Source: a virus
Taxonomy: Duplodnaviria; Caudoviricetes
Length of the DNA stretch: 64,000 bases
Direction: 5' to 3' (one strand)
IMG/VR virus record: IMGVR_UViG_3300050336_000035
Coordinates: 32,001-96,000 of that record
Shown here in pieces: positions 9,102-49,879 of the stretch (positions are counted from its first letter, which is position 1; each line of letters starts with the position of its first letter). The position numbers and the translations under genes are program-made. The notes below the pieces were generated by a model that saw nothing but the letters and a program-made list of their open reading frames with translations, made no database searches and was not told the origin of the DNA.

Positions 9102-10118
9102 GTGAAAAAATTAAATGTATCATGGACTGTAAAAAAAATAGTATATAATATTGATAAAGGAAATGTATTGTTTAACCATCCTATTCAACGTAAATCGGGA
9201 CAATGGTCAGATGAACAAAAAAGTTTATTAATACATAGTTTGTTATCAGATTATCCTGTACCGCCATTATATGCTGTACAAGACCAAAATGAAAATAGTA
9301 GTAAATATTCTGTTTTGGATGGAAAACAAAGACTTACTGTTTTACAGAATTATATTAAAGACGGATGGAAATTAATGAAAGAAATGCCGGAAGTAATAAT
9401 AAATGAAACTACATATGATATAAGTGGTTTAAAATTTTCACAACTTCCAGAAGATGCAAGAGAGGAATTGGAATCAGCAAATTTATTAATGTACATATTT
9501 GAGGATTGTTCAGATGATGAAATTGAAGAAATATTTTACCGTCTTAATAATGGAACAGCATTAACTAAAGACCAAAAAACTCGTATAAGATTAGGTGATA
9601 GGCTTGCTAGATTTATTGATGAAGTTTTAGAACTAGACTTCTTTAAGACTAAAGCATATTTTTCACCATATCAATTAAAAAGAGCTGAAGACCAAACATG
9701 TATATTACAAACATTAATGTTGCTTGTTGATTACAAATATAAAACATTTAATAATAGTGATGTTTTAGAATTTGCAGAATATTATCGAGAAAACTATAAA
9801 GAAGATGATTTGCAAGAATGTATTAAGCTATTTAGATTGCTTGATAACGCATTTACTGAAAAACATAAACAGATTAAAAAAATTAATATACCTATGTTTG
9901 TAATGGCATTAAAGGCAACATTAGATATGGATTCTTCCTTTGAATTATATTCTGGTTGGGTAAATAAATTTATTGATAGTTATAATCCAAAATGTGAATA
10001 TGCACAGTATTGTGGACAAGGAAGTACTCATAAAGATAAAATTTTAAAACGTCTTGATTTAACTTATAATGATTTAATAGATTATATTTCTGAAAAGGAG
10101 GTACACAATGAGTTTTAA
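9102..10118 (+). CDS. DUF262 (GmrS-like ParB/Srx) domain protein
   Basis: PIQR...W, VLDGKQRLT, IFYRLNNG motifs. Confidence 0.8.
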   Translation: MKKLNVSWTVKKIVYNIDKGNVLFNHPIQRKSGQWSDEQKSLLIHSLLSDYPVPPLYAVQDQNENSSKYSVLDGKQRLTVLQNYIKDGWKLMKEMPEVIINETTYDISGLKFSQLPEDAREELESANLLMYIFEDCSDDEIEEIFYRLNNGTALTKDQKTRIRLGDRLARFIDEVLELDFFKTKAYFSPYQLKRAEDQTCILQTLMLLVDYKYKTFNNSDVLEFAEYYRENYKEDDLQECIKLFRLLDNAFTEKHKQIKKINIPMFVMALKATLDMDSSFELYSGWVNKFIDSYNPKCEYAQYCGQGSTHKDKILKRLDLTYNDLIDYISEKEVHNEF

Positions 10119-11250
10119 TATAGATATTAAAAAAATAAAACCTCATCCTAGAAATAAAGAAATTTATGGTGAGGAAAATATTAATGAACTTGCAGAACAA
10201 ATTATAAAAAGCAACTGGATAAATCCTATTCTTATTAATGATGATAATATAATTATTAGTGGACATAGACGTTATCTAGCATGTTTAATAATTGGTTTAT
10301 TAGAAATTCCTTGTGAACGTATTACATTTAAAGATAAAAACGATGAACTTGAAAGGCTTCTTCTTGAGAATCAATATAGAGAAAAAACAATCTATCAAAA
10401 AATGAAAGAATCAGAAGTTTGGCAAGAGATTGAACCAGAATTAGCTAAAAAAAGGAGATTAGCGAATTTAAAACAAAATTCCGATAAGGACAATTGTCCT
10501 ATTCGGCAAGATGGTCAAGTTCGCGATATTATTGCTGAGAAAGTAGGATTGGGTTCTGGACGTACATATGAAAGAGCAATGCCTGCTGTAAAGAAAATAG
10601 ATGAATTAAAATCACAAGGAAAAGAAAAAGATGCTGAATTTCTTACAGTTGTTTTAAATGGAAGTGTAAGAGGGGCAAAGGATTTGTCTGAAATAGAATC
10701 ATTTGATGAAATATCTAATGAGATTAAAGAAAAAGTAATTAATAAGGAAATTCCTGTGATAAATGCAGTAAAACAAATACGAAATGACTTAGGAATAATA
10801 ACTGATAATAAAAAACAAACAATAAAAAAGAATAGTGAAAAAATCAAGAAGACGAAAATTTGTAATAAATGTGGGGAAGAAAAATCAATATTAGAATTTT
10901 ATGAAGGTAAAAATTATTGTAGAGATTGTCAAAATTCTAATAGAACAAGACAGTTTAAAGATGTTCATGGTAATATTATTCCTACAGACAAAGAAAAATT
11001 AAAAGGAATAGATTTAGATGCTATAGAAGCTGATATAAAAGATACAAATAAAAGCGTTAAAAATAATGATTATGACACTATTACTATGGAAATACAAGCA
11101 AATATAAGTATTTTTATGAACTCAATAAGAAGAATTGTAGAAAGTGAAGATTCTTATGAGGAAATGGATATCTGTAATAAAAATAAGTTATTAGATGCTA
11201 TTAATATGGTGGAAGACACTATTAATATAATAAAAAATAAATTAATTTAA
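10108..11250 (+). CDS. ParB/Spo0J N-terminal domain protein with HTH and Zn-finger region
   Basis: PHPRNKEIYG, IISGHRRYLA, LLENQYRE; CNKC...CRDC. Confidence 0.8.
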   Translation: MSFNIDIKKIKPHPRNKEIYGEENINELAEQIIKSNWINPILINDDNIIISGHRRYLACLIIGLLEIPCERITFKDKNDELERLLLENQYREKTIYQKMKESEVWQEIEPELAKKRRLANLKQNSDKDNCPIRQDGQVRDIIAEKVGLGSGRTYERAMPAVKKIDELKSQGKEKDAEFLTVVLNGSVRGAKDLSEIESFDEISNEIKEKVINKEIPVINAVKQIRNDLGIITDNKKQTIKKNSEKIKKTKICNKCGEEKSILEFYEGKNYCRDCQNSNRTRQFKDVHGNIIPTDKEKLKGIDLDAIEADIKDTNKSVKNNDYDTITMEIQANISIFMNSIRRIVESEDSYEEMDICNKNKLLDAINMVEDTINIIKNKLI

Positions 11251-13381: not shown

Positions 13382-13789
13382 ATGTATGATGAGTTACTAG
13401 AACAATTGAAAGTATTAGATAAATTTAATAAAGGCAAAGTATCAATCACCTTAAACTTTGGTAATTCCTGTATAACCTACACTTATATGAATTTCAGTTG
13501 GGATGAAGATGCAGGATACTTAGTCATGGGAGATAATGACACAATTCACGAAGATGCTACTAGTATAGATTTTGATGATATTTTAGAAGTTGATGAGATG
13601 AATGATGATTTAGTTGAATTGACACTGGAGAATGGAAAAGTAGTTATTATATTAGATACCGAATATTCACTATGCTTTAAATGCGGAGAAAAAAGACCTG
13701 TGTTCTATATGAGGGCTTATGGTGAAAATTCAGAAGAATATGATATAAGAGTATGTCAGGATTGTTTTAATAAGATGATTGAATGTTAA
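13382..13789 (+). CDS. Acidic beta-rich protein with C-terminal Zn ribbon
   Basis: CFKC...CQDC; positional counterpart of 47981-48448. Confidence 0.75.
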   Translation: MYDELLEQLKVLDKFNKGKVSITLNFGNSCITYTYMNFSWDEDAGYLVMGDNDTIHEDATSIDFDDILEVDEMNDDLVELTLENGKVVIILDTEYSLCFKCGEKRPVFYMRAYGENSEEYDIRVCQDCFNKMIEC

Positions 13790-13814
13790 ATATGAACGGA
13801 AAGGAGGAGTAATT

Positions 13815-15215
13815 ATGACTGTTGAAATGAGAACTATTAAATTTTATTCTAATAATAAGACAACTAAAGAAGATTTTGATAAAGGTATTAAATTTTTAAC
13901 TGAATGCCAGGAAGTTCAAAATAAGTTATTGGAATATTATTGGAACAATTTCAGTTTAGTAATTGATTCTAAAAGTTGGATTGATTTCTATAACACAAGA
14001 GTTATGATTACTGCTCCTTCTATTAAGTTTCAACACTATCAACAAATACTTCATATGGTTTATGGTACACTTAAATCTTTACAGGAGAATATTATTCAGA
14101 AAATTCACTTTAAATTTGAAGATAAATTACAACAACGTATTTATAACTATTGTAGTAAGTTTATTTTTGATTGGAATAGGCTTGAAATATATGTTAATAA
14201 ACAAGTTAAAGAGTATAAAAAGAAAGATAAGAAATACTATGAGTTTTTATTAGAAGTTAAAAACGTAATAGATAATGAACAATCTTTTTTGATGTTACAG
14301 CAGGATATAGAAAATAAGTTTTCGGAAATTAAAAATAAAATAAATTTACCACAAAAGAAAACTAAACAGATAATTGCAACTACTCTTCATACAATAGACA
14401 TTGAAAAATATGATAATTATTGGATATTTATAATTGATACTAATCATTTTATAAGTAAAAAGAAAATGGATAAATTCAAAATAGTAATTGATATATCAGA
14501 TTATCATAGAAATGTACTTGACAAATATTGTTTAAAGAATACTTTTACTATAAAACTAAATAATTATGGCAGGATTGAAATTACAGGAGCGTACGAAAAA
14601 GAAATAGATTATCCAGAATCTAACCCTAAATATATTATTGGAATTGATATAGGCTTAAAGAATTTAATTGTATCGTCTGATGGTGAATTTATTGAACAAA
14701 ATAAAACTATTGTAGAGAAAACTCAAAAGCTAATTAAAAATCAAGCTAATAGACAAAGCTTAGAAGCTCATATGAAAAAGAAACTTGATGATGAAAATTT
14801 TACTTTACCTGATAAAAACTATATGAAGAAACAAAATAAGCTTAGTAGATTCGTACAATGTGATAATCGTTACAAGGTTAAACAATTTCTAAAAGGTAGG
14901 GAAGACACTCATATCATTATGGAAGATTTACATTTAAATGATGCTAAGACATATAGCAAAGAAGTAAATTATATGCTGAGAAGAATGAGGATACAAGGCA
15001 TTAAGAATGATTTATTGAAGTACACAAAAGAGATGGGGATTAAAACAACACAAATAAATCCTAGATATACAAGTATTGATTGTCCAATTTGCGGAAATAG
15101 GGATAAATTAAATAGGCAGACACAGGAAACATTCAAATGCACTAAATGTGGTCATACAGATAATGCAGACCATAATGCTAGTGTGAATATTGAAAATAGG
15201 TATTTAAAGGTATAA
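13815..15215 (+). CDS. tnpB: TnpB/Cas12f-like RNA-guided nuclease, RuvC triad intact
   Basis: IGIDIG, IIMEDL, CPIC...CTKC, NADHNASVNI; start at 13815 chosen from the SD and the paralog. Confidence 0.9.
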   Translation: MTVEMRTIKFYSNNKTTKEDFDKGIKFLTECQEVQNKLLEYYWNNFSLVIDSKSWIDFYNTRVMITAPSIKFQHYQQILHMVYGTLKSLQENIIQKIHFKFEDKLQQRIYNYCSKFIFDWNRLEIYVNKQVKEYKKKDKKYYEFLLEVKNVIDNEQSFLMLQQDIENKFSEIKNKINLPQKKTKQIIATTLHTIDIEKYDNYWIFIIDTNHFISKKKMDKFKIVIDISDYHRNVLDKYCLKNTFTIKLNNYGRIEITGAYEKEIDYPESNPKYIIGIDIGLKNLIVSSDGEFIEQNKTIVEKTQKLIKNQANRQSLEAHMKKKLDDENFTLPDKNYMKKQNKLSRFVQCDNRYKVKQFLKGREDTHIIMEDLHLNDAKTYSKEVNYMLRRMRIQGIKNDLLKYTKEMGIKTTQINPRYTSIDCPICGNRDKLNRQTQETFKCTKCGHTDNADHNASVNIENRYLKV

Positions 15216-22610: not shown

Positions 22611-23810
22611 ATGTTATATAAAACAATGATAGTTCCTGTTAATTGTAATAAATCAGATTATAATTATCTTATGCAATGTAATAAGTATTCAGGAATAGTT
22701 TGGAATACTATTGTAAAAATGGATAAAGAAAACAGAGAAAAGTATGGTAAGTCTTTAACTCGTTCAGAGTTACAACATAGTATGAAGAAAAGTGTACCAA
22801 TAATTATGGCTATAAGTATAAATTATGTAATATTGAAGTATATAACTGCTAGAGATGCTATGTTTAGGTCTATGAAAGCGAAGCATAAAAATAGTAATAC
22901 TGTTAGATTACCATATAAAGAAAAGAAATTTTATAATACAATTTGGAGTTATCAAAATTTTAAGATAAATATATCTAAAAATTATATTACACTAGGGAAA
23001 CCAATACTAGTAAATGATAATGGTAAAAATCGAAAACAAAAACCAATTAAATGTAATATAAAAAATATTCCAAACAATATAGTAGAGATTGAATTGATTT
23101 ATCGTAATGGTTTAAAATTAGCCATTAAATATAAAGAAGAAAATAATAATGTTTTAATTCAATCCAATAATGAAGCAGCTATAGACCTTGGTGAAATACA
23201 TAGTATTACTTCTATTGATAGTAATGGTAATGCAATTATAATCACTGGTAGAAAGATTAGAGCTATTAAACAATTGAGAAATAAAGAGTTAGCTAAACTA
23301 AAAAGTCGTAGAAGTAAATGTGCTAAAAGGAGTAAGCAGTATAAGAAATATAGTAAGGCAATTTATAATCTCAAATATAATACTGACAATAGGATATTAG
23401 ATTGTGTTCATAAGATTACAAAGCTATATTTAGATTATTGTTTACAAAATAATATTTCAAAAGTATACTATGGTGACTTAGACAATTGTACAAGAAGTAC
23501 AAAAGAAAATAATCAAGGCAATACAATGGTAAGACAAAAACTAAGTCAATGGTGTTACGGACTAATTATGTTACAACTACAAAATAAACTATCAAGATAT
23601 GGAATTGAATTAGTAAAAGTTAAAGAATATTATACTTCAAAGAAATGTCCTATTTGCAGTAAGTTAAATAAACCTAATGGTAGAAATTATGAATGTGAGT
23701 GTGGTTATAAAATGCATAGAGATGTCAATGGAGCTATAAATATTCTTAATGATAACAGTAATTGGTATGTAGATAGATATACTAATCTAAAGTATCTACG
23801 TATAGCGTAA
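22611..23810 (+). CDS. tnpB: TnpB, IS605/IS607-type with rearranged RuvC-II, no TnpA
   Basis: AAIDLG, YYGDL with the alternative Glu in KEYYTSK, CPIC...CEC, HRDVNGAINI. Confidence 0.9.
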   Translation: MLYKTMIVPVNCNKSDYNYLMQCNKYSGIVWNTIVKMDKENREKYGKSLTRSELQHSMKKSVPIIMAISINYVILKYITARDAMFRSMKAKHKNSNTVRLPYKEKKFYNTIWSYQNFKINISKNYITLGKPILVNDNGKNRKQKPIKCNIKNIPNNIVEIELIYRNGLKLAIKYKEENNNVLIQSNNEAAIDLGEIHSITSIDSNGNAIIITGRKIRAIKQLRNKELAKLKSRRSKCAKRSKQYKKYSKAIYNLKYNTDNRILDCVHKITKLYLDYCLQNNISKVYYGDLDNCTRSTKENNQGNTMVRQKLSQWCYGLIMLQLQNKLSRYGIELVKVKEYYTSKKCPICSKLNKPNGRNYECECGYKMHRDVNGAINILNDNSNWYVDRYTNLKYLRIA

Positions 23811-24607: not shown

Positions 24608-25219
24608 ATGGTAGAATTCATTCTAGGGACATTTATAGTAGTTTTAATTCGCAATAAGATAGTCAGTAATATAAACAGTAAGGCAGAAAAAGAATTGTAT
24701 TCTGTGTATCATTTTAAGCCTTTGTTTAAACATTGGAGTATTTATCCATCATTGATTTGTGTTATTATTTACTTATATTTAGAATATTGTGTTTTTAGAA
24801 GAAATTTTTGGTTTATTCCATATCAGCAATGGTTTAGAATAATTACTATTATGTCATATGTTCCATTAGTTTATAAATATAAGTTGCTTGAGAGTATATC
24901 CAAAAAGCATAAAAGCATCTGTTTTTCACCTTATTTAATTTCTCTTTATCTTATCCTTTTAGGTACAGGGTTAAATTTGATAGCTATGGCATATAACAAT
25001 TGGAAAATGCCTATATTTCCAACGATGACGTATTCCACAGGTTACGCGACTACTTTTATTGATAATAAGCATATTCTTGGAAACATGTATACAAAATTAA
25101 TTCCTTTGACTGATATATTTGATAGTGGATATATGTGTTTTAGCTTAGGTGATGTATTTTTTAGAATGTTTAGTTCTATTTTAATATTTTTTTCAATAAA
25201 AAAAATAAATAAATATTAA
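24608..25219 (+). CDS. DUF5317-like membrane protein
   Basis: Multiple TM segments; LN...NNWKMP...LTDIFD...SLGDV. Confidence 0.7.
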   Translation: MVEFILGTFIVVLIRNKIVSNINSKAEKELYSVYHFKPLFKHWSIYPSLICVIIYLYLEYCVFRRNFWFIPYQQWFRIITIMSYVPLVYKYKLLESISKKHKSICFSPYLISLYLILLGTGLNLIAMAYNNWKMPIFPTMTYSTGYATTFIDNKHILGNMYTKLIPLTDIFDSGYMCFSLGDVFFRMFSSILIFFSIKKINKY

Positions 25220-25303
25220 AATAATTGTTGACTTATTTATGCAATGGTATTATACTATAAATGTACCAAATAAAACCACTACATAAGGAGTGAATAAAAT
25301 AAA

Positions 25304-26092
25304 ATGCAAAATTGGATTAACGCTTTATTGAATTGTTTATTAGTATCAATTCCAGAAGAAATAGTATGGGTTACATTAACTCTTGTTTTACTAAAAAGAT
25401 TTGATTTATTAGATTGGCGAAGATGGAAACGAAATATAAAGTGGTTAAGTATTCCAATTATACCTGTAGCAATTTCTATTAATATATTAAAATATATTTT
25501 TGTTATACCTAGACTAGTAATGAGTATTAGTACATTAATTATGTTAATTTTATTGATTATTTATATAGTTAAAAAAACTGATAAGCTTAAAAATACTAAA
25601 ATATACAAAGTTATATTATTTACATTGTTTGGAAGTTGCTTAATTGCTTTTACTGAGGCAATTTATATTCCTATTATACTATTTATGACAAATTTAAAAA
25701 TATCCCAAATAAATATAGATATTTTGAACAATTTTTTATTTTCATTACCAGAAAGAATAATTCAAATTTGTTTTATTTTATACATCATTTATGGCAAAAC
25801 ATATAAGTTAAAATATAACTATGGTTTTAAAATTTTTGAAAATAAACTTAATGTTTTTAGTTTATTTTCAATTATTATAATTTTAGTAGTATTTTGGTTA
25901 ATATCATTAAATGTTTTTTCTAATCAGGGTATATTTAGAGATTTCCCTATTAATTTAAAAATTTTATTAGGTACTGCAATGAATCTTATGCCAACTCTAT
26001 TTTTTGTAATAATGGTTATTAATAATTTAACTTTTATTCAAAAAAATATTCAAATAGAACAAAAATACTCAGATATGTTGGATGAAAAATAG
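25304..26092 (+). CDS. AgrC-like multi-TM sensor domain lacking a histidine kinase
   Basis: ~7 hydrophobic segments, VSIPEE and SLPER motifs, directly upstream of agrD; no H/N/G boxes. Confidence 0.6.
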   Translation: MQNWINALLNCLLVSIPEEIVWVTLTLVLLKRFDLLDWRRWKRNIKWLSIPIIPVAISINILKYIFVIPRLVMSISTLIMLILLIIYIVKKTDKLKNTKIYKVILFTLFGSCLIAFTEAIYIPIILFMTNLKISQINIDILNNFLFSLPERIIQICFILYIIYGKTYKLKYNYGFKIFENKLNVFSLFSIIIILVVFWLISLNVFSNQGIFRDFPINLKILLGTAMNLMPTLFFVIMVINNLTFIQKNIQIEQKYSDMLDEK

Positions 26093-26110
26093 AAAGTTGG
26101 GGTGTTTTAA

Positions 26111-26230
26111 ATGAAAAAATTGAGTGTTATTGTCAGCTTAGTTACACTTATAGGTATTATATGCTCAAATATGGTGGCTTCATGGTACTTGCTTAGTCAG
26201 CCAGAAACTCCATCAATACTTTCAAAGTAA
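26111..26230 (+). CDS. agrD: AgrD-type cyclic autoinducing peptide precursor (missed by the ORF track)
   Basis: MKKLSVIVSLVTLIGIICSNMVA-SWYLL-SQPETPSILSK; QPxxP follower typical of clostridial AgrD. Confidence 0.85.
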   Translation: MKKLSVIVSLVTLIGIICSNMVASWYLLSQPETPSILSK

Positions 26231-26394
26231 TTTAGGTTACTAAAGAAAGTATTAATTATCTTTTATATCGTATAGGAAACTTATTAAAGCCCTATACGAT
26301 ATAAATATAATTATTTTAAAAAAACTATTGACAATGATTTGGTAATAATATAAAATAATTACATAAACGATATTACAAAAAGGAGTTTAAAAAA

Positions 26395-27273
26395 ATGTTA
26401 GAATTGTTTAGAAAATTTAATGTGAATGAGATTACCAATATACCAACAGAAATTGAAATAATAAATAAAAGATTATCGTATGAATTAGAAACTGTACTAC
26501 AAGATACAACAATAAATATGTTTGCTAGACGTTGCAACCTATTAAGTACGATTCAACTAGAAGATATTTTAAATTTAAAGCTTACTCAGAAACCATCAAG
26601 AGAGCTACTTAGAATTATAGCTAGTAACAGTAATGGAAATGTTACATATAGAAGGCTATATGAAATTTGCAATTATTCTGAATTTGATGAAGAAGAAGAC
26701 AAACGGTGGTTGGATTTTAAACCGAAAAGGGGTCAGATATATTATATAGATTTAGGATTTTCAATTGATAGTGAACAGAGTGGAGTAAGACCATGCTTAA
26801 TATTACAGAATGATGTTGGTAATGATCGAAGTACGACATTAGTGGTTCTCCCAATTTCGACACGATTAAAAAAATTCGGAAAAACACATGTAAGACTTAC
26901 TCGTGAAAACGGGTTAAGAGAAGAATCATATATATTAGCTGAACAAATACGTGTAGTAAGTAAACGTAGAATATATTATAGTGGTTGTGCAAATTTAATT
27001 ACAACTTTATCAGAAGAAAAAATGGAAGAAGTAAGAGTAGCTGTCGAGTTTGAATTAGGTCTTGAAGATTTATCATTTAATGAAGAAAAGGCTTATATAT
27101 TAGCTAATGCAGTAAGAACTTTAAAAAGAAATATTAAAGTAAAACAATCAAGAGATTTAATTGACATATATAAAGAAAAATATAATGAATTCATATCATA
27201 TTGTAAAAAGTTTAACAGAGACCCAGAGGTTGTTTATAGTAGCTATAAAACCTTAGATATTCAATATGCTTAA
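26395..27273 (+). CDS. MazF/PemK endoribonuclease domain with N-terminal HTH-like and C-terminal extensions
   Basis: KRGQIYYIDLG...SEQSGVRPCLILQNDVGN...LAEQIRVVSKRRI. Confidence 0.85.
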   Translation: MLELFRKFNVNEITNIPTEIEIINKRLSYELETVLQDTTINMFARRCNLLSTIQLEDILNLKLTQKPSRELLRIIASNSNGNVTYRRLYEICNYSEFDEEEDKRWLDFKPKRGQIYYIDLGFSIDSEQSGVRPCLILQNDVGNDRSTTLVVLPISTRLKKFGKTHVRLTRENGLREESYILAEQIRVVSKRRIYYSGCANLITTLSEEKMEEVRVAVEFELGLEDLSFNEEKAYILANAVRTLKRNIKVKQSRDLIDIYKEKYNEFISYCKKFNRDPEVVYSSYKTLDIQYA

Positions 27274-27294
27274 AAGAAGGAGATAGAATACAGA

Positions 27295-27948
27295 ATGCAA
27301 AATATATTTACATTTAAGTTTATAGATGCTTGGTCAATATATTGTGCAAAACGATTATATGAACCAATTAAAGATAAACCAGAAATACTTAGACAACTAA
27401 AAGTATTAATTGAAAATATAAAACATGTAACATATGATGACAATGAATTAAATGAACAAAGTTATATAGATATTTTTCAATATGCTTTTAAAGCGATTTA
27501 TGGTGCAATTATTAAGGGTGGACTGTTACTGCTGATAGCATCGTTATTGAATATATTAGTACCAACCTTGGTAGTAACAGCTTCCTTTGGTATAATTAGG
27601 GTGTTTGCAGGAGGGTTACATTTTAAAAGTTATACTCTATGCACATATGTGTCATTAATTTGTTTCCTTATTGGAGGGGTAATAGGAAGTGCCTTTAAAT
27701 ATAATTTATATATTAATATAATAGTATATATCTTTGCATTAACTAACTTTTTATTATATGCTCCAGTAGAAAATGAAAATCTCCCTATCAAACCCCACAA
27801 AAAAATAATATTTAAACGAATAGCTATAGTAAATACAACTATATTGTTACTCTTAAACACAATATTCTTATACAATATATCTATAACAGTTGGTGTTTTT
27901 ATAGCAGGATTAATTACTCTTCCTATTTTTAATAGTAAATTTAAATAA
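27295..27948 (+). CDS. agrB: AgrB peptide-processing membrane protease
   Basis: RVFAGGLHFKSYTLC (His/Cys), YAPV...P. Confidence 0.9.
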   Translation: MQNIFTFKFIDAWSIYCAKRLYEPIKDKPEILRQLKVLIENIKHVTYDDNELNEQSYIDIFQYAFKAIYGAIIKGGLLLLIASLLNILVPTLVVTASFGIIRVFAGGLHFKSYTLCTYVSLICFLIGGVIGSAFKYNLYINIIVYIFALTNFLLYAPVENENLPIKPHKKIIFKRIAIVNTTILLLLNTIFLYNISITVGVFIAGLITLPIFNSKFK

Positions 27949-28097
27949 AGTTTTGACAAAATAAATGACATATATGTTACATTTTCAACAATAATATAAA
28001 GTCTTATCTTATTTTGTCGATTTATAATATATAAGGTCGATATCTTATATTTGAAATGTCGAGAGATTAAGCGTATTATAATTTTTACATAGATATA

Positions 28098-28146
28098 TTG
28101 CAAACAGGGAAATTAACATTTATAATTGATTTAGAACATATGTTCT
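28098..28146 (+). promoter_or_regulatory. sigmaA promoter with LexA (SOS) box
   Basis: TTGCAA...TATAAT(28121), then AGAACATATGTTCT (28133-28146), matching the Firmicute GAAC-N4-GTTC box. Confidence 0.75.
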
Positions 28147-28167
28147 TTTTAAGGAGGGAAAAAGAAA

Positions 28168-28443
28168 ATGAATTATTGTATGCAAGATTGTGAAACAGGG
28201 AACTTTGTATCAAGTAATTCAATTTTAATTGACGGAGGTAAATTATATTATTCTACTTTTACAGGTAGAGACCTATGTGGAGGGTTAGAATATAATTTAA
28301 CACAAGAACAGGCAGAAAAAAAGATGAGCAATTTTATAAAAAAAATGAACAAATATGGATTACATAAAAATTTAAAAATTGTAGGTGTAGATATTACCGC
28401 TTTAAACATAGGAAATATATATACTGTTGAGTATGTAATATAA
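28168..28443 (+). CDS. Small putatively SOS-regulated protein
   Basis: 91-aa ORF with strong SD after the SOS box. Confidence 0.75.
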   Translation: MNYCMQDCETGNFVSSNSILIDGGKLYYSTFTGRDLCGGLEYNLTQEQAEKKMSNFIKKMNKYGLHKNLKIVGVDITALNIGNIYTVEYVI

Positions 28444-28559
28444 TTGAATAAATCTTAAAATAATTTGTTTATTAGCTTGACTTTTTGTACATAATATAAT
28501 ACAATTCAATTATTATATTAGATATTTACAATTATCTATTGAAAGGTGTGTATTGAAGT

Positions 28560-29900
28560 ATGTACAAAGAGAAGCAAGAACAACTGTATTCAAGGATTAA
28601 TAGTATTATAGCTAATACTGATTATCGAATATTTAAAGAAGCTGTAGGAACTGAGTTGAGAAAAAGAGGTCTAGATTCTAGCATCATAATATTAGCATCT
28701 GAAATTATCATGAAAAATGCTAAAGTTGAGCAATTAGTTAATGAAGAAGATAATGATATAAAATTATTATTTTTCTTTGCTGATGCTCTTAATAAGGCTT
28801 TAAGTGATAATGAAGGTGCTATTATTATTTTAGAAAATTATTTTTTAAAAAGTGAAATAGAAGAATTAACGGATTATACAATTAAAGAAGGTAAAGAAAG
28901 TATTTTTCCACTTACAATTTATGATGTTACTCAGTTTAATGACCACCATTGGGAAGGGAGTATAACTGCTCAATATCAAGATAAGTGCAATAGTTATAGA
29001 GTACCTTATTATAATCCTAATACACAGCGTAACCCCAAGAGAACAAAGAAGGGTGATAAAATAAATGTTGACCCTAAAAAAGTACTTGCTATTAGAGATG
29101 AATTATTAAGTGGAGAGTACGAAACAGATTCAATTATCTGGAATATTTTAAAAACTGGAGATGAAAAGTTTACTTATAATCCTAAAAATAGAACATTAAC
29201 AATATTTGAAGGAAGTATTATTAATATAGTTGATGGACAACACCGAAAAGAAGCTAATTCTGCTGCTATAGCTATTAATCCTAATTTGGATTACAAATGG
29301 CCTCTTAGTATTTTTAATGTTAGTGAGATTAAGGCACATAGTATAATGGTTCAGAAAAACAAACAGACGAAAATGCCTGAAGAATGGATTCAAACAAAAG
29401 ATTATAGTAGATATGAAAATGATGTTATTAGTAAGATGAAAGATGAAAAATCTAACCTTTTTAAAATTATGGGTGAAGATGAAAAACAAATTGCCAACAA
29501 TCAATCTTTAGTTAAAAAATCTAATATAGCATTAGCTATTAAAGAAATTTATCAAGAAGAAATATCTGATAATGATGACAGAAGACAACTAGCTAGATGG
29601 TTGTCAGAATTCTTTGATTATATGATAAAACTATATTCTTATGAATTTATTGAGGAGTCTTTAAAAGTAAAAGAAGTTAGTTTTATAAATTGGAAAAATA
29701 TGTTTTTTGGCTATATAGCGTTATCGAGAGCTTTGAGAAATAAAGATAATTGGCGTGAAGTATTTAAAGAAAAAATGTCTTCTATAGATTTTAGTAATAC
29801 AAATCCATTATGGCAAACTTTTGGAATATTAAATACAAAAGATGCCAATGCAACTTTAAGGAAACATTTGTATAATTTATTTAAGGAAGGTGTTGAATAA
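28560..29900 (+). CDS. DGQHR/DndB-like protein, SPbeta YopQ (SroE)-like
   Basis: YNPNTQR, IVDGQHRK; coupled to the integrase-fold gene. Confidence 0.7.
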   Translation: MYKEKQEQLYSRINSIIANTDYRIFKEAVGTELRKRGLDSSIIILASEIIMKNAKVEQLVNEEDNDIKLLFFFADALNKALSDNEGAIIILENYFLKSEIEELTDYTIKEGKESIFPLTIYDVTQFNDHHWEGSITAQYQDKCNSYRVPYYNPNTQRNPKRTKKGDKINVDPKKVLAIRDELLSGEYETDSIIWNILKTGDEKFTYNPKNRTLTIFEGSIINIVDGQHRKEANSAAIAINPNLDYKWPLSIFNVSEIKAHSIMVQKNKQTKMPEEWIQTKDYSRYENDVISKMKDEKSNLFKIMGEDEKQIANNQSLVKKSNIALAIKEIYQEEISDNDDRRQLARWLSEFFDYMIKLYSYEFIEESLKVKEVSFINWKNMFFGYIALSRALRNKDNWREVFKEKMSSIDFSNTNPLWQTFGILNTKDANATLRKHLYNLFKEGVE

Positions 29901-30937
29901 TGAGTTTTGAATATGTTAAATTTTCAAATATAGATGAATTAGTTTTTCAATATAACCAAGAATTGAAGAAAGAGTATTTAAGACAAAAACCATTAGAGAC
30001 AGCAAGAAGTGATTATAAAACTATGGTATCTGTTGATGAATATGAAACATTATTAAAAAAACCTGTATATGATTTTTCGCTAGTAGAACGAAATGAATTG
30101 ATGATGATGAAATTCAGAAATACTACTGTTCATGCAGTTCTTTCGACAGCTTCAAAGATTAAAGGATATATAGATTATTGTGTTAGAGCAGGTGAAGTAC
30201 CTCACAATCAAAATATTTTTGACACTTTTATTAAATCTGAAGCTATGAAATTTGTAAGTAAACATGCTACTGAATTTAGATATATAACTCCAGAACGGTT
30301 AAATGAATATATTCATATTTTAAAAAATTGGCAAGACAAATGTCTAATAAGATTAATAAATGAAGGGGTAAGGGGAAGAACGGTTAAAGGTGGAACATTA
30401 GAAGAAATTATTAATCTACAAATTAAACCTAATAGTGAAGACACAAAAAATTGTATTTTAAGATTAGTAGGTAATGATGGTTCTTTTCGAGAACTTCAAG
30501 TAACTCGTGAAGTAATGGATTTAGTTTTAATGACATATCAGTCAGAAGAATATTTACCAAATAACGGAATTGATGATAAATCTGTAGAAAAGAAAAAAGG
30601 CGCTAAAAAATATACAATTAATAGATATAAAAATTATGTATTTTGTGCTTTAGGAAATAGTAAATTTGGAACATTAAATCCAATAACAATAAATGCTAGA
30701 CTTCAAAAAATTCAGGAATATTGTGATAATCAATTTATTACTGTCTATAATTTATATATGAGTGGAATGATAACTAAAGCAATAGAAATTTACAAAGAAA
30801 AAGGTGAATTAACTTCACAAGATTATATAAATATTTGTTTTAAGTATAAATATGGTGGAGATACGCCTGAAAAATATATGTCTAAATTGAAATATGAAGT
30901 AGAAACCTATTTAAAAGGTGGTATTCAAGATGCTTGA
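29900..30937 (+). CDS. Tyrosine-recombinase-fold lysogeny repressor, YopR (MrpR/SroF)-like
   Basis: SAM-like N-terminus, EGVRG...EEIINL; HxxR replaced by YNLYMSGM, so probably inactive as a recombinase. Confidence 0.7.
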   Translation: MSFEYVKFSNIDELVFQYNQELKKEYLRQKPLETARSDYKTMVSVDEYETLLKKPVYDFSLVERNELMMMKFRNTTVHAVLSTASKIKGYIDYCVRAGEVPHNQNIFDTFIKSEAMKFVSKHATEFRYITPERLNEYIHILKNWQDKCLIRLINEGVRGRTVKGGTLEEIINLQIKPNSEDTKNCILRLVGNDGSFRELQVTREVMDLVLMTYQSEEYLPNNGIDDKSVEKKKGAKKYTINRYKNYVFCALGNSKFGTLNPITINARLQKIQEYCDNQFITVYNLYMSGMITKAIEIYKEKGELTSQDYINICFKYKYGGDTPEKYMSKLKYEVETYLKGGIQDA

Positions 30938-31379
30938 GTATTTAAATAGAAAAGAAAAGATTCTTGTTGGTCTAAAAAACGGATTGACTAACAAAGGATA
31001 TTCTTTTAAAACACTTGCAGGAATTAATGGTAAAATTGATTTATTACAAGAAATAAAAACAAATTATAACTATGAAGTTTTAAAGAATCTTATTGAAAGT
31101 ACAAATTACTCTATAATAAATCAAATCAAAGATGTAAAACATGGATTAGATAATGTTTCTATCATAAATGATAGGAAAAGTGATTTCTATTTATATGCTA
31201 TTAAAACAGATGATATTAAAGAAAAAGATAATGAAGTTTTAAGAGAATCTTTTCTAAGTGATAATACATTAATTTATATTGCTGAAAAAAGCATTGGAAA
31301 TTTTTATGTTATTTTTAGTAAAAAGAAATATGAAGGTAAACACGAATATATTGCTAATCGTTGGCAGCAAGGGAGATAA
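30930..31379 (+). CDS. Hypothetical protein
   Basis: ORF overlapping the repressor stop; likely ATG at 30930. Confidence 0.7.
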   Translation: MLEYLNRKEKILVGLKNGLTNKGYSFKTLAGINGKIDLLQEIKTNYNYEVLKNLIESTNYSIINQIKDVKHGLDNVSIINDRKSDFYLYAIKTDDIKEKDNEVLRESFLSDNTLIYIAEKSIGNFYVIFSKKKYEGKHEYIANRWQQGR

Positions 31380-31383
31380 TACT

Positions 31384-31791
31384 ATGAATATAGGAGAAAA
31401 AATTCAAAAATTAAAAGAATCTATGAATTTTAAGGATTATCAAGAGTTTGGAAAAGCAGTAGGACTACCTGGAGATTGGATAAAAGATGCTTTATCAAAA
31501 AAAGAATCAATCACTACAGTTGATATTACTAGATTAATTAAAATTGCAGAATACTTTAATGTTACATTAGATTGGTTGTTAAAAGATAATAATGAATGGG
31601 TTATAAAGTATAAAGAAGGATTTAAAGAAGGACTTACATCTGATGATATAGGCATAATGCTGGATGAAATTGATAATAAATTATGTGAAACGAATAATAA
31701 ATTTTATGGCTATAATATGAATAAAGATACTATAATTTTATGTAAAGATGCTTTAGATGAAGTGAAAAAGTTAATTAAAGATAATTTATAA
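31384..31791 (+). CDS. XRE HTH regulator (YopS-like position)
   Basis: MNIGEKIQKLKE...LIKIAEYFNVTLDWLL. Confidence 0.85.
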   Translation: MNIGEKIQKLKESMNFKDYQEFGKAVGLPGDWIKDALSKKESITTVDITRLIKIAEYFNVTLDWLLKDNNEWVIKYKEGFKEGLTSDDIGIMLDEIDNKLCETNNKFYGYNMNKDTIILCKDALDEVKKLIKDNL

Positions 31792-31908
31792 TAATATATA
31801 AGGGCTATAAGCCCTTATTACAAGATTAAGTGTAATAAATTTTCCTCTGACAATGATGTCATCTCTAAATACCTCTATTACATAAGAATTACTTAAGGGG
31901 ATGACAGA

Positions 31909-48475: not shown

Positions 48476-49879
48476 ATGGCTATGGAAATGAGAGCAATCA
48501 AATTTTATTCCAATAATAAAACTACAACTGAAGATTTTAATCGAGGCATTAACTTTTTAACCGAATGCCAAGAAGTTGAAAATAAGCTATTAGAATATTA
48601 CTGGACTAACTTTAATGAAGTTATTAGTGTTAGAACTTGGATTGATTTCTATAGTAAAAGAATTATGATTACTTCTCCTTCTACTAAATTTCAGCATTAT
48701 ATGCAAATACTTCACATGGTTTATATGCAATTAAAAAGTTTAGAAGAAAAAACTAAGCAAAAGGTTCACTTTAAATTTGAAGATAAAATGCAACAACGCA
48801 TTTACAATTACTGTAGTAAGTTTGTTTTTGACTGGGATAGACTTGAAAAGTACATTAATAAACAAGTTAAAGAATATAAAAAGAAAGATAAGAAATATTA
48901 TGATTTCTTAATGGAAGTAAAAAATATAATAGACAATGACTTATACTTCTTAACTTTACAACAAGATATTGAAAATAAGTTTTGGGAGTTAAAAAACAAA
49001 ATAAATCTACCTAGAAAGAAGTCTAAACAAATTTGGGCTACTACGTTTCATACCGTAGATATTGAGAAGTATGAGGGTTATTGGATTTTTGTTATTGATA
49101 CTAATAAGTTTATTACTAAACGTAAAATGGAAAATTTCAGAATAGTAGTAGATATATCAGATTATCATAATAGTATATTAGATAATTATAATTTAAATAA
49201 CACTTTTACTATTAAATTTAATAATTATGATAGATTTGAAATTATTGGTGTATATGAAAAAGAAATTATTTATCCTGAACCTAAACCTACTAAAACAATT
49301 GGTATTGATATTGGCTTAAAGAATTTAATTGTATCTTCCGATGGTGATTATATTGAGCAGAATAAAACAATATTAAAGAAAGCTCAAAAATTAATTAAGA
49401 ATCAAGCAAATAGACAAAGTTTAGAAGCACATATGAAAAAGAAATTAGATAACGAAAATTATACTCTACCTGATAAAAATTATATGAAGAAGCAGAACAA
49501 ACTAAGTAGATTTGTTCAATGTGATAATCGTTATAAAGTTAAACAATTTCTCAAAGGTAAAGAAGATACCCATATCATTATGGAAGACTTACAATTAAAT
49601 GATGCTAAGACTTATAGTAAAGAAGTAAATTATATGCTTAGAAGAATGAAGATTCAAGGGGTTAAAAATGATATTTTAAAGTATACAAAAGAAATGGGTA
49701 TAAAGACAACACAAGTAAATCCAAGATATACAAGTATTGATTGCCCTATCTGTGGAAATAGAGACAAACAAAATAGACAAACACAAGAATTATTTAAATG
49801 TACTAAATGTAGTCATACAGATAATGCAGACCATAATGCTAGTGTTAATATTGAAAATAGATATTTGAAAGCACAATGA
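48476..49879 (+). CDS. tnpB: TnpB/Cas12f-like RNA-guided nuclease, RuvC triad intact
   Basis: IGIDIG, IIMEDL, CPIC...CTKC, NADHNASVNI; close paralog of 13815-15215. Confidence 0.9.
   Translation: MAMEMRAIKFYSNNKTTTEDFNRGINFLTECQEVENKLLEYYWTNFNEVISVRTWIDFYSKRIMITSPSTKFQHYMQILHMVYMQLKSLEEKTKQKVHFKFEDKMQQRIYNYCSKFVFDWDRLEKYINKQVKEYKKKDKKYYDFLMEVKNIIDNDLYFLTLQQDIENKFWELKNKINLPRKKSKQIWATTFHTVDIEKYEGYWIFVIDTNKFITKRKMENFRIVVDISDYHNSILDNYNLNNTFTIKFNNYDRFEIIGVYEKEIIYPEPKPTKTIGIDIGLKNLIVSSDGDYIEQNKTILKKAQKLIKNQANRQSLEAHMKKKLDNENYTLPDKNYMKKQNKLSRFVQCDNRYKVKQFLKGKEDTHIIMEDLQLNDAKTYSKEVNYMLRRMKIQGVKNDILKYTKEMGIKTTQVNPRYTSIDCPICGNRDKQNRQTQELFKCTKCSHTDNADHNASVNIENRYLKAQ

Follow-up and report, generated by a model that had tools for sequence, protein, structure and literature searches.

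A kinase-less agr-type cassette with an HTH-MazF fusion beside an SPbeta-type lysis-lysogeny switch: a candidate system for communication between phages

Arbitrium is, to our knowledge, so far the sole demonstrated dedicated phage-to-phage peptide language, and it relies on imported linear peptides and a cytoplasmic receptor. Here we analyse a locus in a 64,000-nucleotide stretch of a Clostridium-type phage (bases 32001-96000 of its IMG/VR record, IMGVR_UViG_3300050336_000035; this whole stretch is called the window, and positions are window coordinates). The locus holds an agr-type cassette, consisting of genes for a seven-transmembrane (7-TM) protein, an AgrD propeptide, a fusion of a helix-turn-helix (HTH) domain with the RNase MazF, and the peptidase AgrB. 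Judged from sequence comparison, this cassette is a strong candidate for another way, beside arbitrium, in which phages may communicate with each other.

The closest described systems come from two sides. In SPbeta the genes aimR and aimP lie upstream of yopM-R in the same orientation. In phi3T lacking AimX the host MazF reportedly breaks down the majority of phage mRNAs but not those of the sro operon, favouring lysogeny (10.1101/2025.11.27.690993; PMC10769878), and SroF has a small antirepressor, Sar, that is under LexA control (10.1101/2025.11.27.690993). On the agr side, the agr3 locus of phage phiCDHM1 comprises phage agrB and agrD and no agrA, is thought to use the AgrA of the host, and its function is untested (PMC3901668); agr genes are also mentioned in Brevibacillus phages, with no function shown (PMC11945551). 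A full-text literature search yielded no paper in which an agr cassette containing a MazF fusion adjoins a switch of the SPbeta type.

We read the locus as a kinase-less phage agr-type cassette which feeds the adjoining SPbeta-type lysis-lysogeny switch, and give this reading a probability of roughly 0.4. An earlier, sequence-only reading of the window had proposed a circuit in which a cyclic peptide, sensed by a non-kinase receptor, controls the phage-encoded MazF and thereby sets lysis versus lysogeny. Position, linkage, hypervariability of the peptide ring, co-variation of the ring with the membrane protein and an avoidance of UACAU confined to the RNA strand now speak for this circuit; the identity of the receptor, its contact with MazF and an effect of the peptide stay conjectural. 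The proposed circuit is partly supported, and the co-variation and the strand-specific avoidance, both new here, strengthen it.

Gene order, peptide and peptidase

All elements listed by the sequence-only reading (the kinase-less membrane protein, agrD, the HTH-MazF fusion, agrB, an SOS-boxed gene and the genes of the DGQHR, integrase-fold and XRE proteins) were recovered as open reading frames (ORFs) where it had placed them (Table 1). The proposed arbitrium position was borne out as well. The cassette lies upstream of homologues of yopQ and yopR and is co-oriented with them, where SPbeta has aimR-aimP-aimX. In BLASTP the YopQ-like protein shows 27% identity to YopQ over 398 amino acids (aa; E 1e-29), and the MrpR-type repressor finds yopR of SPbeta (E 5e-9) and SroF of phi3T in tblastn. 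The absence of AgrA and of aimR/aimP from the window extends to the complete phage, in which we found neither a LytTR domain (PF04397) nor an AgrC kinase domain (HATPase_c or HATPase_c_5) nor a match to SPbeta AimR, the last being an empty search that is weak on its own.

Related loci were obtained by exact protein look-up and by a scan of viral contigs, and are cited by our own numbers. The gene order DUF5317 protein, membrane protein, small ORF, fusion, AgrB, small gene, YopQ-like protein, MrpR, 153-aa protein and HTH protein is kept in 13 distinct and diverged phage loci, so that the linkage is a conserved one. Over MazF identities from 84% down to 30% (L001-L015) the fusion keeps its position in the cassette, and its full-length relatives (83-42% identity) sit on contigs including several of 135-214 kb. 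DUF5317 occupies the same position in 12 of 13 related agr-cassette loci (L007 has no match); we found no literature on this family. The modules are mosaic: L001 is near to the window in MazF and AgrB and distant in the YopQ-like protein and MrpR, while L002 behaves in the opposite way. In L016, which has no agr genes, a MazF without HTH and with the same C-terminal domain (hhalign 95%) adjoins the genes of the YopQ-like protein and MrpR, and therefore MazF belongs with the switch. Searches of 50,697 phage records, with the 7.2-kb region at DNA level and with AgrB by tblastn, gave no match.

Because a hairpin follows agrD and a promoter-like site precedes the fusion gene, the cassette reads as two units, one formed by the membrane gene and agrD and the other by the fusion gene and agrB. 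The latter two are 21 nucleotides (nt) apart with a single promoter-like site ahead of both. In this AT-rich DNA promoter-like matches occur overall at chance level (72 vs 66), and only their intergenic placement was counted. AT-rich dyads lie on either side of the promoter-like site at 26328; a convincing direct-repeat operator was found in none of the three intergenic regions.

The AgrD pattern occurs once in the six frames of the 167-kb genome. Common to the small ORFs of 13 phages are a leader of MKK plus hydrophobic residues, a Ser that never varies and the conserved tail [NSH][QE]PxxP, and the position of the ring aligns with the C. perfringens ring [CLWFT]. The four ring residues after the Ser are hypervariable and mostly aromatic or hydrophobic, with 13 different sets in total (WYLL, WLML, WYLF, WLFY, IGWF, LMWL, AWTF, HTLF, FMWL, WLFT, WLFS, MFFS and WLGA). 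In AgrB, H109 and C116 are invariant in 13 orthologues and seven residues apart. This AgrD layout together with the invariant AgrB His and Cys supports peptide production, and that the cassette makes a peptide can be regarded as well supported at the level of sequence. Peptides closed as Ser-lactones are known from S. pseudintermedius, C. difficile agr2 and, as GBAP, from E. faecalis (PMC12312760), and we infer the same chemistry for the peptide of the cassette.

Membrane protein and HTH-MazF fusion

The membrane protein had been described as kinase-less, and this holds for its family: an exhaustive phmmer search found 117 relatives, all of 56-326 aa and none of kinase length. Its ESM-Atlas cluster is 76% viral. 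The best structural match in ESM-Atlas is the sensor half of HATPase_c_5 histidine kinases, with a template modelling (TM) score of 0.61 over 205 residues, the next match reaching 0.46; a feature search of the Atlas limited to named clusters gave nothing above 0.77. Since the structural match comes without a sequence link to kinases, the label AgrC-like is a fold-level lead only. Hydropathy and the positive-inside rule give seven transmembrane segments with the N-terminus outside, and the protein ends 12-18 residues past the last segment. Its most conserved parts are the first cytoplasmic loop and the acidic C-terminal tail, its most variable part comprises transmembrane segments 5-7, and the only near-invariant residues of the family are P17, E18 and P149. 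An identity as a CPBP/MroQ-type protease was considered and rejected, as neither a conserved His nor a CPBP-type motif is present.

Between close phages the membrane protein outpaces MazF in divergence: L013 and L014 are 82% identical in MazF and 83% in DUF5317, and 42% in the membrane protein. Co-variation of candidate receptor and peptide, which the sequence-only reading leads one to expect, was indeed found. Given MazF identity, the identity of the membrane protein tracks the similarity of the ring (partial Mantel r 0.38, p 0.006), and the same test shows no such tracking for AgrB (-0.09), the YopQ-like protein (-0.22) and MrpR (-0.24). L013 and L014 also carry a second copy of the membrane gene after agrB (L013:7559-8410, L014:7578-8441), without a second agrD. 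These second copies are 84% identical to each other, compared with the 42% of the first copies, and may be orphan receptors used for eavesdropping. Taken together, co-variation, predicted topology, fast divergence and second copies support a peptide-contacting role, and we treat the membrane protein as a candidate for the peptide receptor.

The family is not confined to phages; in Clostridiaceae it is rare, being found in at least 5 of 392 genomes searched, with six candidates scored per genome. Bacterial contigs hold 7-TM paralogues of 300-313 aa with a longer helical tail, three at L084:4672-8141, where they adjoin ctsR-mcsB-clpC, and one at L085:6001-7080. Each bacterial AgrD-like gene (38-39 aa; rings CWWIL, CAWVF and SFWFA) follows such a paralogue, and no AgrB was found within 6 kb. 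The C. perfringens agr operon includes two hypothetical genes (PMC2706048); their correspondence to the membrane protein and DUF5317 was considered and not confirmed.

The fusion is built from an XRE-type HTH (residues about 15-97), the acidic linker SEFDEEEDKRW (about 95-105), MazF (about 108-225) and a helical tail (225-292). The acidic stretch between HTH and MazF is conserved, with a Trp at its end. In profile searches of the PDB the MazF domain matches all of B. subtilis EndoA/MazF (E 4e-28), and the N- or C-terminal domain alone gives nothing significant. An AlphaFold2 (AF2) model from a 19-row alignment has a predicted local distance difference test (pLDDT) score of 82; a single-sequence model (pLDDT 41) was not used. 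Residues 108-225 superimpose on MazF of S. aureus and B. subtilis (VIA-align Z 19.2, root-mean-square deviation (rmsd) 1.8, 113 aligned; Foldseek TM score 0.91 to YdcE; 39-42% identity), and residues 15-97 on the XRE regulator 2ofy_B (VIA-align Z 9.5, rmsd 3.2, 76 aligned), followed at lower ranks by CapH, SinR, ImmR, 434 repressor, HigA and HipB. The C-terminal 70 residues are helical and common to other phage MazFs; a likeness of this tail to the influenza NS1 RNA-binding domain (VIA Z 8.2, rmsd 2.9, 68 aligned) was rejected because it lies within helical-bundle noise.

Both equivalents of the catalytic residues Arg25 and Thr48 are present in the window copy (R132 and T148), and the Arg25 equivalent with its surrounding RNA-binding motif is invariant among orthologues. 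The fusion is the sole MazF of the complete phage. No separate MazE gene adjoins it: the 165-nt upstream gap holds only the hairpin and the promoter-like site, and downstream agrB follows. We infer that the HTH and the acidic linker may take the place of MazE. A fold test of the membrane protein with the fusion scored 0.45 (best of three controls 0.00), which is weak support and shifts the odds of a contact only slightly. Of 80 solved complexes 58 reach the mark of this test, as do 2 of 110 mismatched pairs, and at scores of 0.60 or below only 7 of the 80 complexes and both passing mismatches reach it; its runs agreed in at least 0% of contacts, the partners had a pLDDT of at least 74, and since custom alignments were used these calibration counts are approximate.

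Several related phages have additional genes around MazF. Extra stand-alone MazF genes (134-217 aa) are located near the cassette at L004:12848-13501 and L008:2247-2696, and upstream of it in L012-L015. In the clade with 42% identity an extra gene of about 100 aa without family match is found between the fusion gene and agrB (L005:8895-9203; similar gaps in L008-L010). The order at L016:4507-9607 is tyrosine integrase, a 98-aa protein whose tail EDDEYYDEEEFD is acidic, MazF (223 aa, no HTH), YopQ-like protein, MrpR, a LexA box (9203) and a gene of 81 aa, the last two resembling the position of Sar in SPbeta. The 98-aa protein was considered as a homologue of the HTH domain and proved not to be homologous.

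UACAU avoidance and rival explanations

UACAU is the site cut by MazF of Bacillus, Staphylococcus and the C. difficile type. Absence of this site from the repressor operon was a prediction set before counting. No part of the 167-kb genome free of TACAT is longer than window 28488-31265, which spans the YopQ-like gene, the MrpR gene and most of the 153-aa gene, so that the first two contain zero UACAU. Pooled over 14 loci and compared with locus density, the YopQ-like genes have 6 sites where 39 are expected and the MrpR genes 12 where 29.8 are expected, whereas the counts for the membrane gene, AgrB and DUF5317 equal or exceed those expected. In shuffles that hold amino-acid sequence and codon usage fixed the depletion of the repressor genes persists (TACAT 18 vs 39, z -4.5, 14 loci). 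Of 1024 pentamers, AAAAA and two words that contain GATC are the only ones depleted more strongly than TACAT, which ranks fourth. In the repressor genes its reverse complement shows no depletion (63 vs 55), nor are the agr and membrane genes depleted, and 13 of the 14 loci fall under the expected count.

A mechanism that would connect these observations runs as follows. Infected cells and lysogens would secrete a Ser-lactone pentacycle (SWYLL in the window phage), and the 7-TM protein would bind it at the membrane through its variable half of segments 5-7. The conserved cytoplasmic loop and acidic tail could then alter the hold of the 7-TM protein on the HTH-MazF fusion, whose own HTH and acidic linker would otherwise serve as built-in antitoxin and autoregulator. 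Active MazF would cut UACAU-rich phage transcripts and spare the UACAU-free repressor operon, leading to lysogeny, a step that would parallel host MazF in phi3T without AimX. The direction of this logic, with abundant peptide switching MazF on, is guessed from the analogy with arbitrium. DNA damage would enter separately, in that the 91-aa gene would be released from LexA and act like Sar as an antirepressor. A second and mechanistically distinct phage-phage system of exactly this form, with extracellular Ser-lactone pherotypes, a kinase-less 7-TM receptor directly gating a self-inhibited HTH-MazF, and a site-free repressor operon promoting lysogeny, is possible and appears doubtful in its full detail.

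A number of points weigh against a cassette that feeds the switch through its own receptor and RNase. The Atlas model behind the kinase-sensor match has a pLDDT of only 0.67. A 94-row profile of the membrane family, run against 5.8 billion proteins with scoring of just the 8000 candidates that had most words in common with it, found family members only, with no kinase-fused form and no Pfam domain, and a hidden Markov model of the family gave no real match to the HPK10 kinases of two metagenome-assembled genomes. The pairing of the bacterial paralogues with AgrD-like genes in the absence of AgrB would also fit a role in maturation, export or immunity. In the fusion, the Thr48 equivalent is replaced in 5 of 19 orthologues, and the AF2 model, with a predicted TM score of 0.50, does not fix domain packing or the docking of the acidic linker. 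For the window genome alone the UACAU depletion has P values of 0.03 and 0.07 per gene, and the pooled P-values are optimistic because the 14 loci are related. The SPbeta repressor genes show no UACAU depletion. Furthermore, the selection could come from a host MazF with the same specificity, and the UACAU specificity of the phage MazF is assumed from its identity of about 40% to the enzymes of Bacillus and Staphylococcus.

Some of these points are at home in another explanation, according to which the 7-TM protein serves maturation, export or immunity, in a role like that of MroQ or an exporter, and a host kinase of HPK10/AgrC or VirS type reads the signal. The phage would then manipulate host quorum sensing (by lysogenic conversion or Ser-lactone cross-inhibition) or listen through host regulators. 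The use of host AgrA thought to occur with phage agr of the phiCDHM1 type (PMC3901668) would agree with this, as would the bacterial loci without AgrB, the missing sequence link to kinase sensors and the fact that leader removal in S. aureus requires a second membrane protease (PMC12312760). However, the lack of a conserved His or CPBP-type motif argues against a protease, the ring co-varies with the membrane protein and not with AgrB, orphan second copies without a second peptide suit a receptor better than a maturase, and manipulation of the host needs no tight, conserved linkage to a repressor module. We consider this explanation unlikely.

The remaining alternatives concern the fusion. It could be an independent single-chain toxin-antitoxin, serving addiction of a plasmid-like prophage or defence against superinfection, with the agr genes as chance neighbours in a variable region of accessory genes and UACAU avoidance as protection from host MazF. 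Extended MazFs are common phage accessory genes (phrog_1936, phrog_35650), further stand-alone MazFs occur in six of the related phages named above, the window has a ParB-like gene, and the acidic-tail protein before MazF in L016 resembles a separate antitoxin. A chance neighbour would hardly be so close to agrB, with which the fusion is probably co-transcribed, nor keep its place through 30-84% identity, and MazF still stands beside the YopQ-like protein and MrpR where agr is absent; this makes the toxin-antitoxin quite improbable. Even less probable, in our opinion, is that the fusion acts mainly as a transcription factor, with cassette or switch promoters as the targets of its XRE domain, MazF and tail being a regulatory or oligomerisation module and not an RNase. 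The clear HTH fold, the AT-rich dyads and the Ile, Asn or Met at the Thr48 position of the five orthologues would be in line with it. On the other side, the Arg25 equivalent and the RNA-binding motif do not vary, both catalytic residues are there in the window copy, and the fact that the adjoining operon avoids UACAU on one strand only argues for cleavage of RNA.

Neighbouring features and comparison with known systems

Table 1. Features of the locus in window coordinates, with the basis of each assignment
Feature	Position	Strand	Basis
DUF5317 membrane protein, first cassette gene	24608..25219	+	PF17248, E 7e-12
Promoter-like site TTGACT-17-TATACT, 5' of membrane gene	25228..25256	+	consensus match only
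Membrane protein, 262 aa, about 7 TM, no kinase domain, candidate peptide receptor	25304..26092	+	no Pfam, PHROG or NCBIfam match
agrD, 39-aa propeptide, predicted ring S-W-Y-L-L closed via Ser	26111..26230	+	TIGR04223 15.6 bits, below cut-off of 19; comparative pattern
15-bp perfect hairpin 3' of agrD, then T-rich tail, terminator-like	26262..26305	+	inverted repeat
Promoter-like site TTGACA-17-TAAAAT, 11/12, best of the region	26328..26356	+	consensus match
XRE-HTH/MazF/helical-tail fusion	26395..27273	+	PemK/MazF domain (Pfam), residues 111-217, E 6.6e-25
agrB peptidase	27295..27948	+	PF04647, E 1.9e-29
Promoter-like site TTGCAA-17-TATAAT, then LexA box	28098..28146	+	consensus match
91-aa SOS-boxed gene, candidate Sar-like antirepressor	28168..28443	+	position and LexA box
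Promoter-like site 5' of repressor operon	28477..28505	+	consensus match
DndB/DGQHR protein, homologue of SPbeta YopQ (SroE)	28560..29900	+	PF14072; phrog_5732, E 3e-60
MrpR/YopR/SroF-type integrase-fold repressor	29900..30937	+	PF22822 and PF22823 (N- and C-terminal domains)
153-aa protein of repressor operon, no family match	30918..31379	+	conserved in 9/14 related loci
XRE-type HTH protein, RstR-like	31384..31791	+	weak HTH_3, HTH_19; phrog_8, phrog_4
GC-rich hairpin at operon end	31798..31818	.	sequence

GAAC-N4-GTTC occurs a single time in the 64 kb, as the perfect LexA box AGAACATATGTTCT at 28133-28146; the box is preceded by the promoter-like site and followed by the ribosome-binding site that serves the 91-aa gene. 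The exact motif lies between agrB and the YopQ-like gene in 9 of 13 loci (the window and eight others), and two more have forms with one mismatch. No sequence similarity between the 91-aa protein and YopT was found, and its position differs from that of Sar; Sar proteins reportedly share less than 20% identity among themselves (10.1101/2025.11.27.690993). The HTH gene at the end of the operon likely starts at ATG 31384, which follows an AAAGGAG ribosome-binding site.

The source phage is a complete IMG/VR record of 167,493 bp with direct terminal repeats and a completeness rated at 100%. Its GC content is about 26%, and the genes of the window are nearly all on the + strand, many of them small; other recognisable ones encode an NAD-dependent ligase, a Sak4-like protein and a DnaB-like helicase. 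At 10108-11250 lies the gene of a ParB-like nuclease or partition protein, and together with the terminal repeats it may point to a plasmid-like prophage lifestyle. The early region also contains three ORFs similar to TnpB/IS605-type transposases (phrog_506, phrog_12300) at 22611-23810, 13779-15215 and 48476-49879. Over the whole 167 kb short palindromes are strongly avoided (GATC 3 vs 354 expected, GGCC 2 vs 52, CCGG 1 vs 39), which looks like strong restriction-site avoidance; GTAC and AGCT are close to their expected counts.

If the cassette feeds the switch as we propose, large temperate phages of anaerobic Clostridia would use agr-type cyclic peptides, a kinase-less receptor and a MazF of their own for the problem that arbitrium solves. 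This would join agr pherotypes, toxin-antitoxin RNases and SPbeta-type repressors, offer the testable rule that transcripts free of the cleavage site survive, and provide a natural AgrC-like sensor that signals without a phosphorelay. Orphan second receptors would let some phages eavesdrop on the peptides of others.

Compared with MazF of Bacillus and Staphylococcus (EndoA, UACAU-specific), the fusion shares the full MazF fold with catalytic Arg and Thr; unlike in MazF-MazE pairs there is no separate MazE, but an N-terminal XRE HTH with acidic linker and a C-terminal helical domain. With canonical agrBDCA of S. aureus and clostridial agrBD the cassette has in common the AgrB dyad, an AgrD composed of a leader, a ring of five residues and a PxxP tail, and the pherotype-like hypervariability of ring and membrane partner. 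It differs in that its genes are split, with membrane gene and agrD followed by fusion and agrB, and in that its output is apparently an RNase/HTH fusion. As in phiCDHM1, agrB and agrD are phage-borne and agrA is missing (PMC3901668). The arrangement of phiCDHM1 is otherwise a mirror image, because its AgrC has a kinase domain and no identified receptor domain (PMC3901668), and in contrast to the phage studied here it lacks both a MazF fusion and the context of an SPbeta-type switch.

The likeness to arbitrium of SPbeta and phi3T lies in a peptide module directly upstream of co-oriented YopQ and YopR homologues, in a MazF RNase as part of the decision logic (PMC10769878; 10.1101/2025.11.27.690993), and in a small LexA-boxed gene beside the repressor. 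This gene is upstream of the YopQ-like gene, whereas that of SPbeta is downstream of the repressor; equivalents of yopM-P are missing, and the repressor genes are, unlike those of SPbeta, UACAU-depleted. While phi3T uses a host MazF inhibited by AimX, MazF is phage-encoded and HTH-fused here. Finally, the cassette has no AimR or AimP, and its peptide is of the AgrD/AgrB type and for this reason presumably cyclic and sensed extracellularly, not imported.

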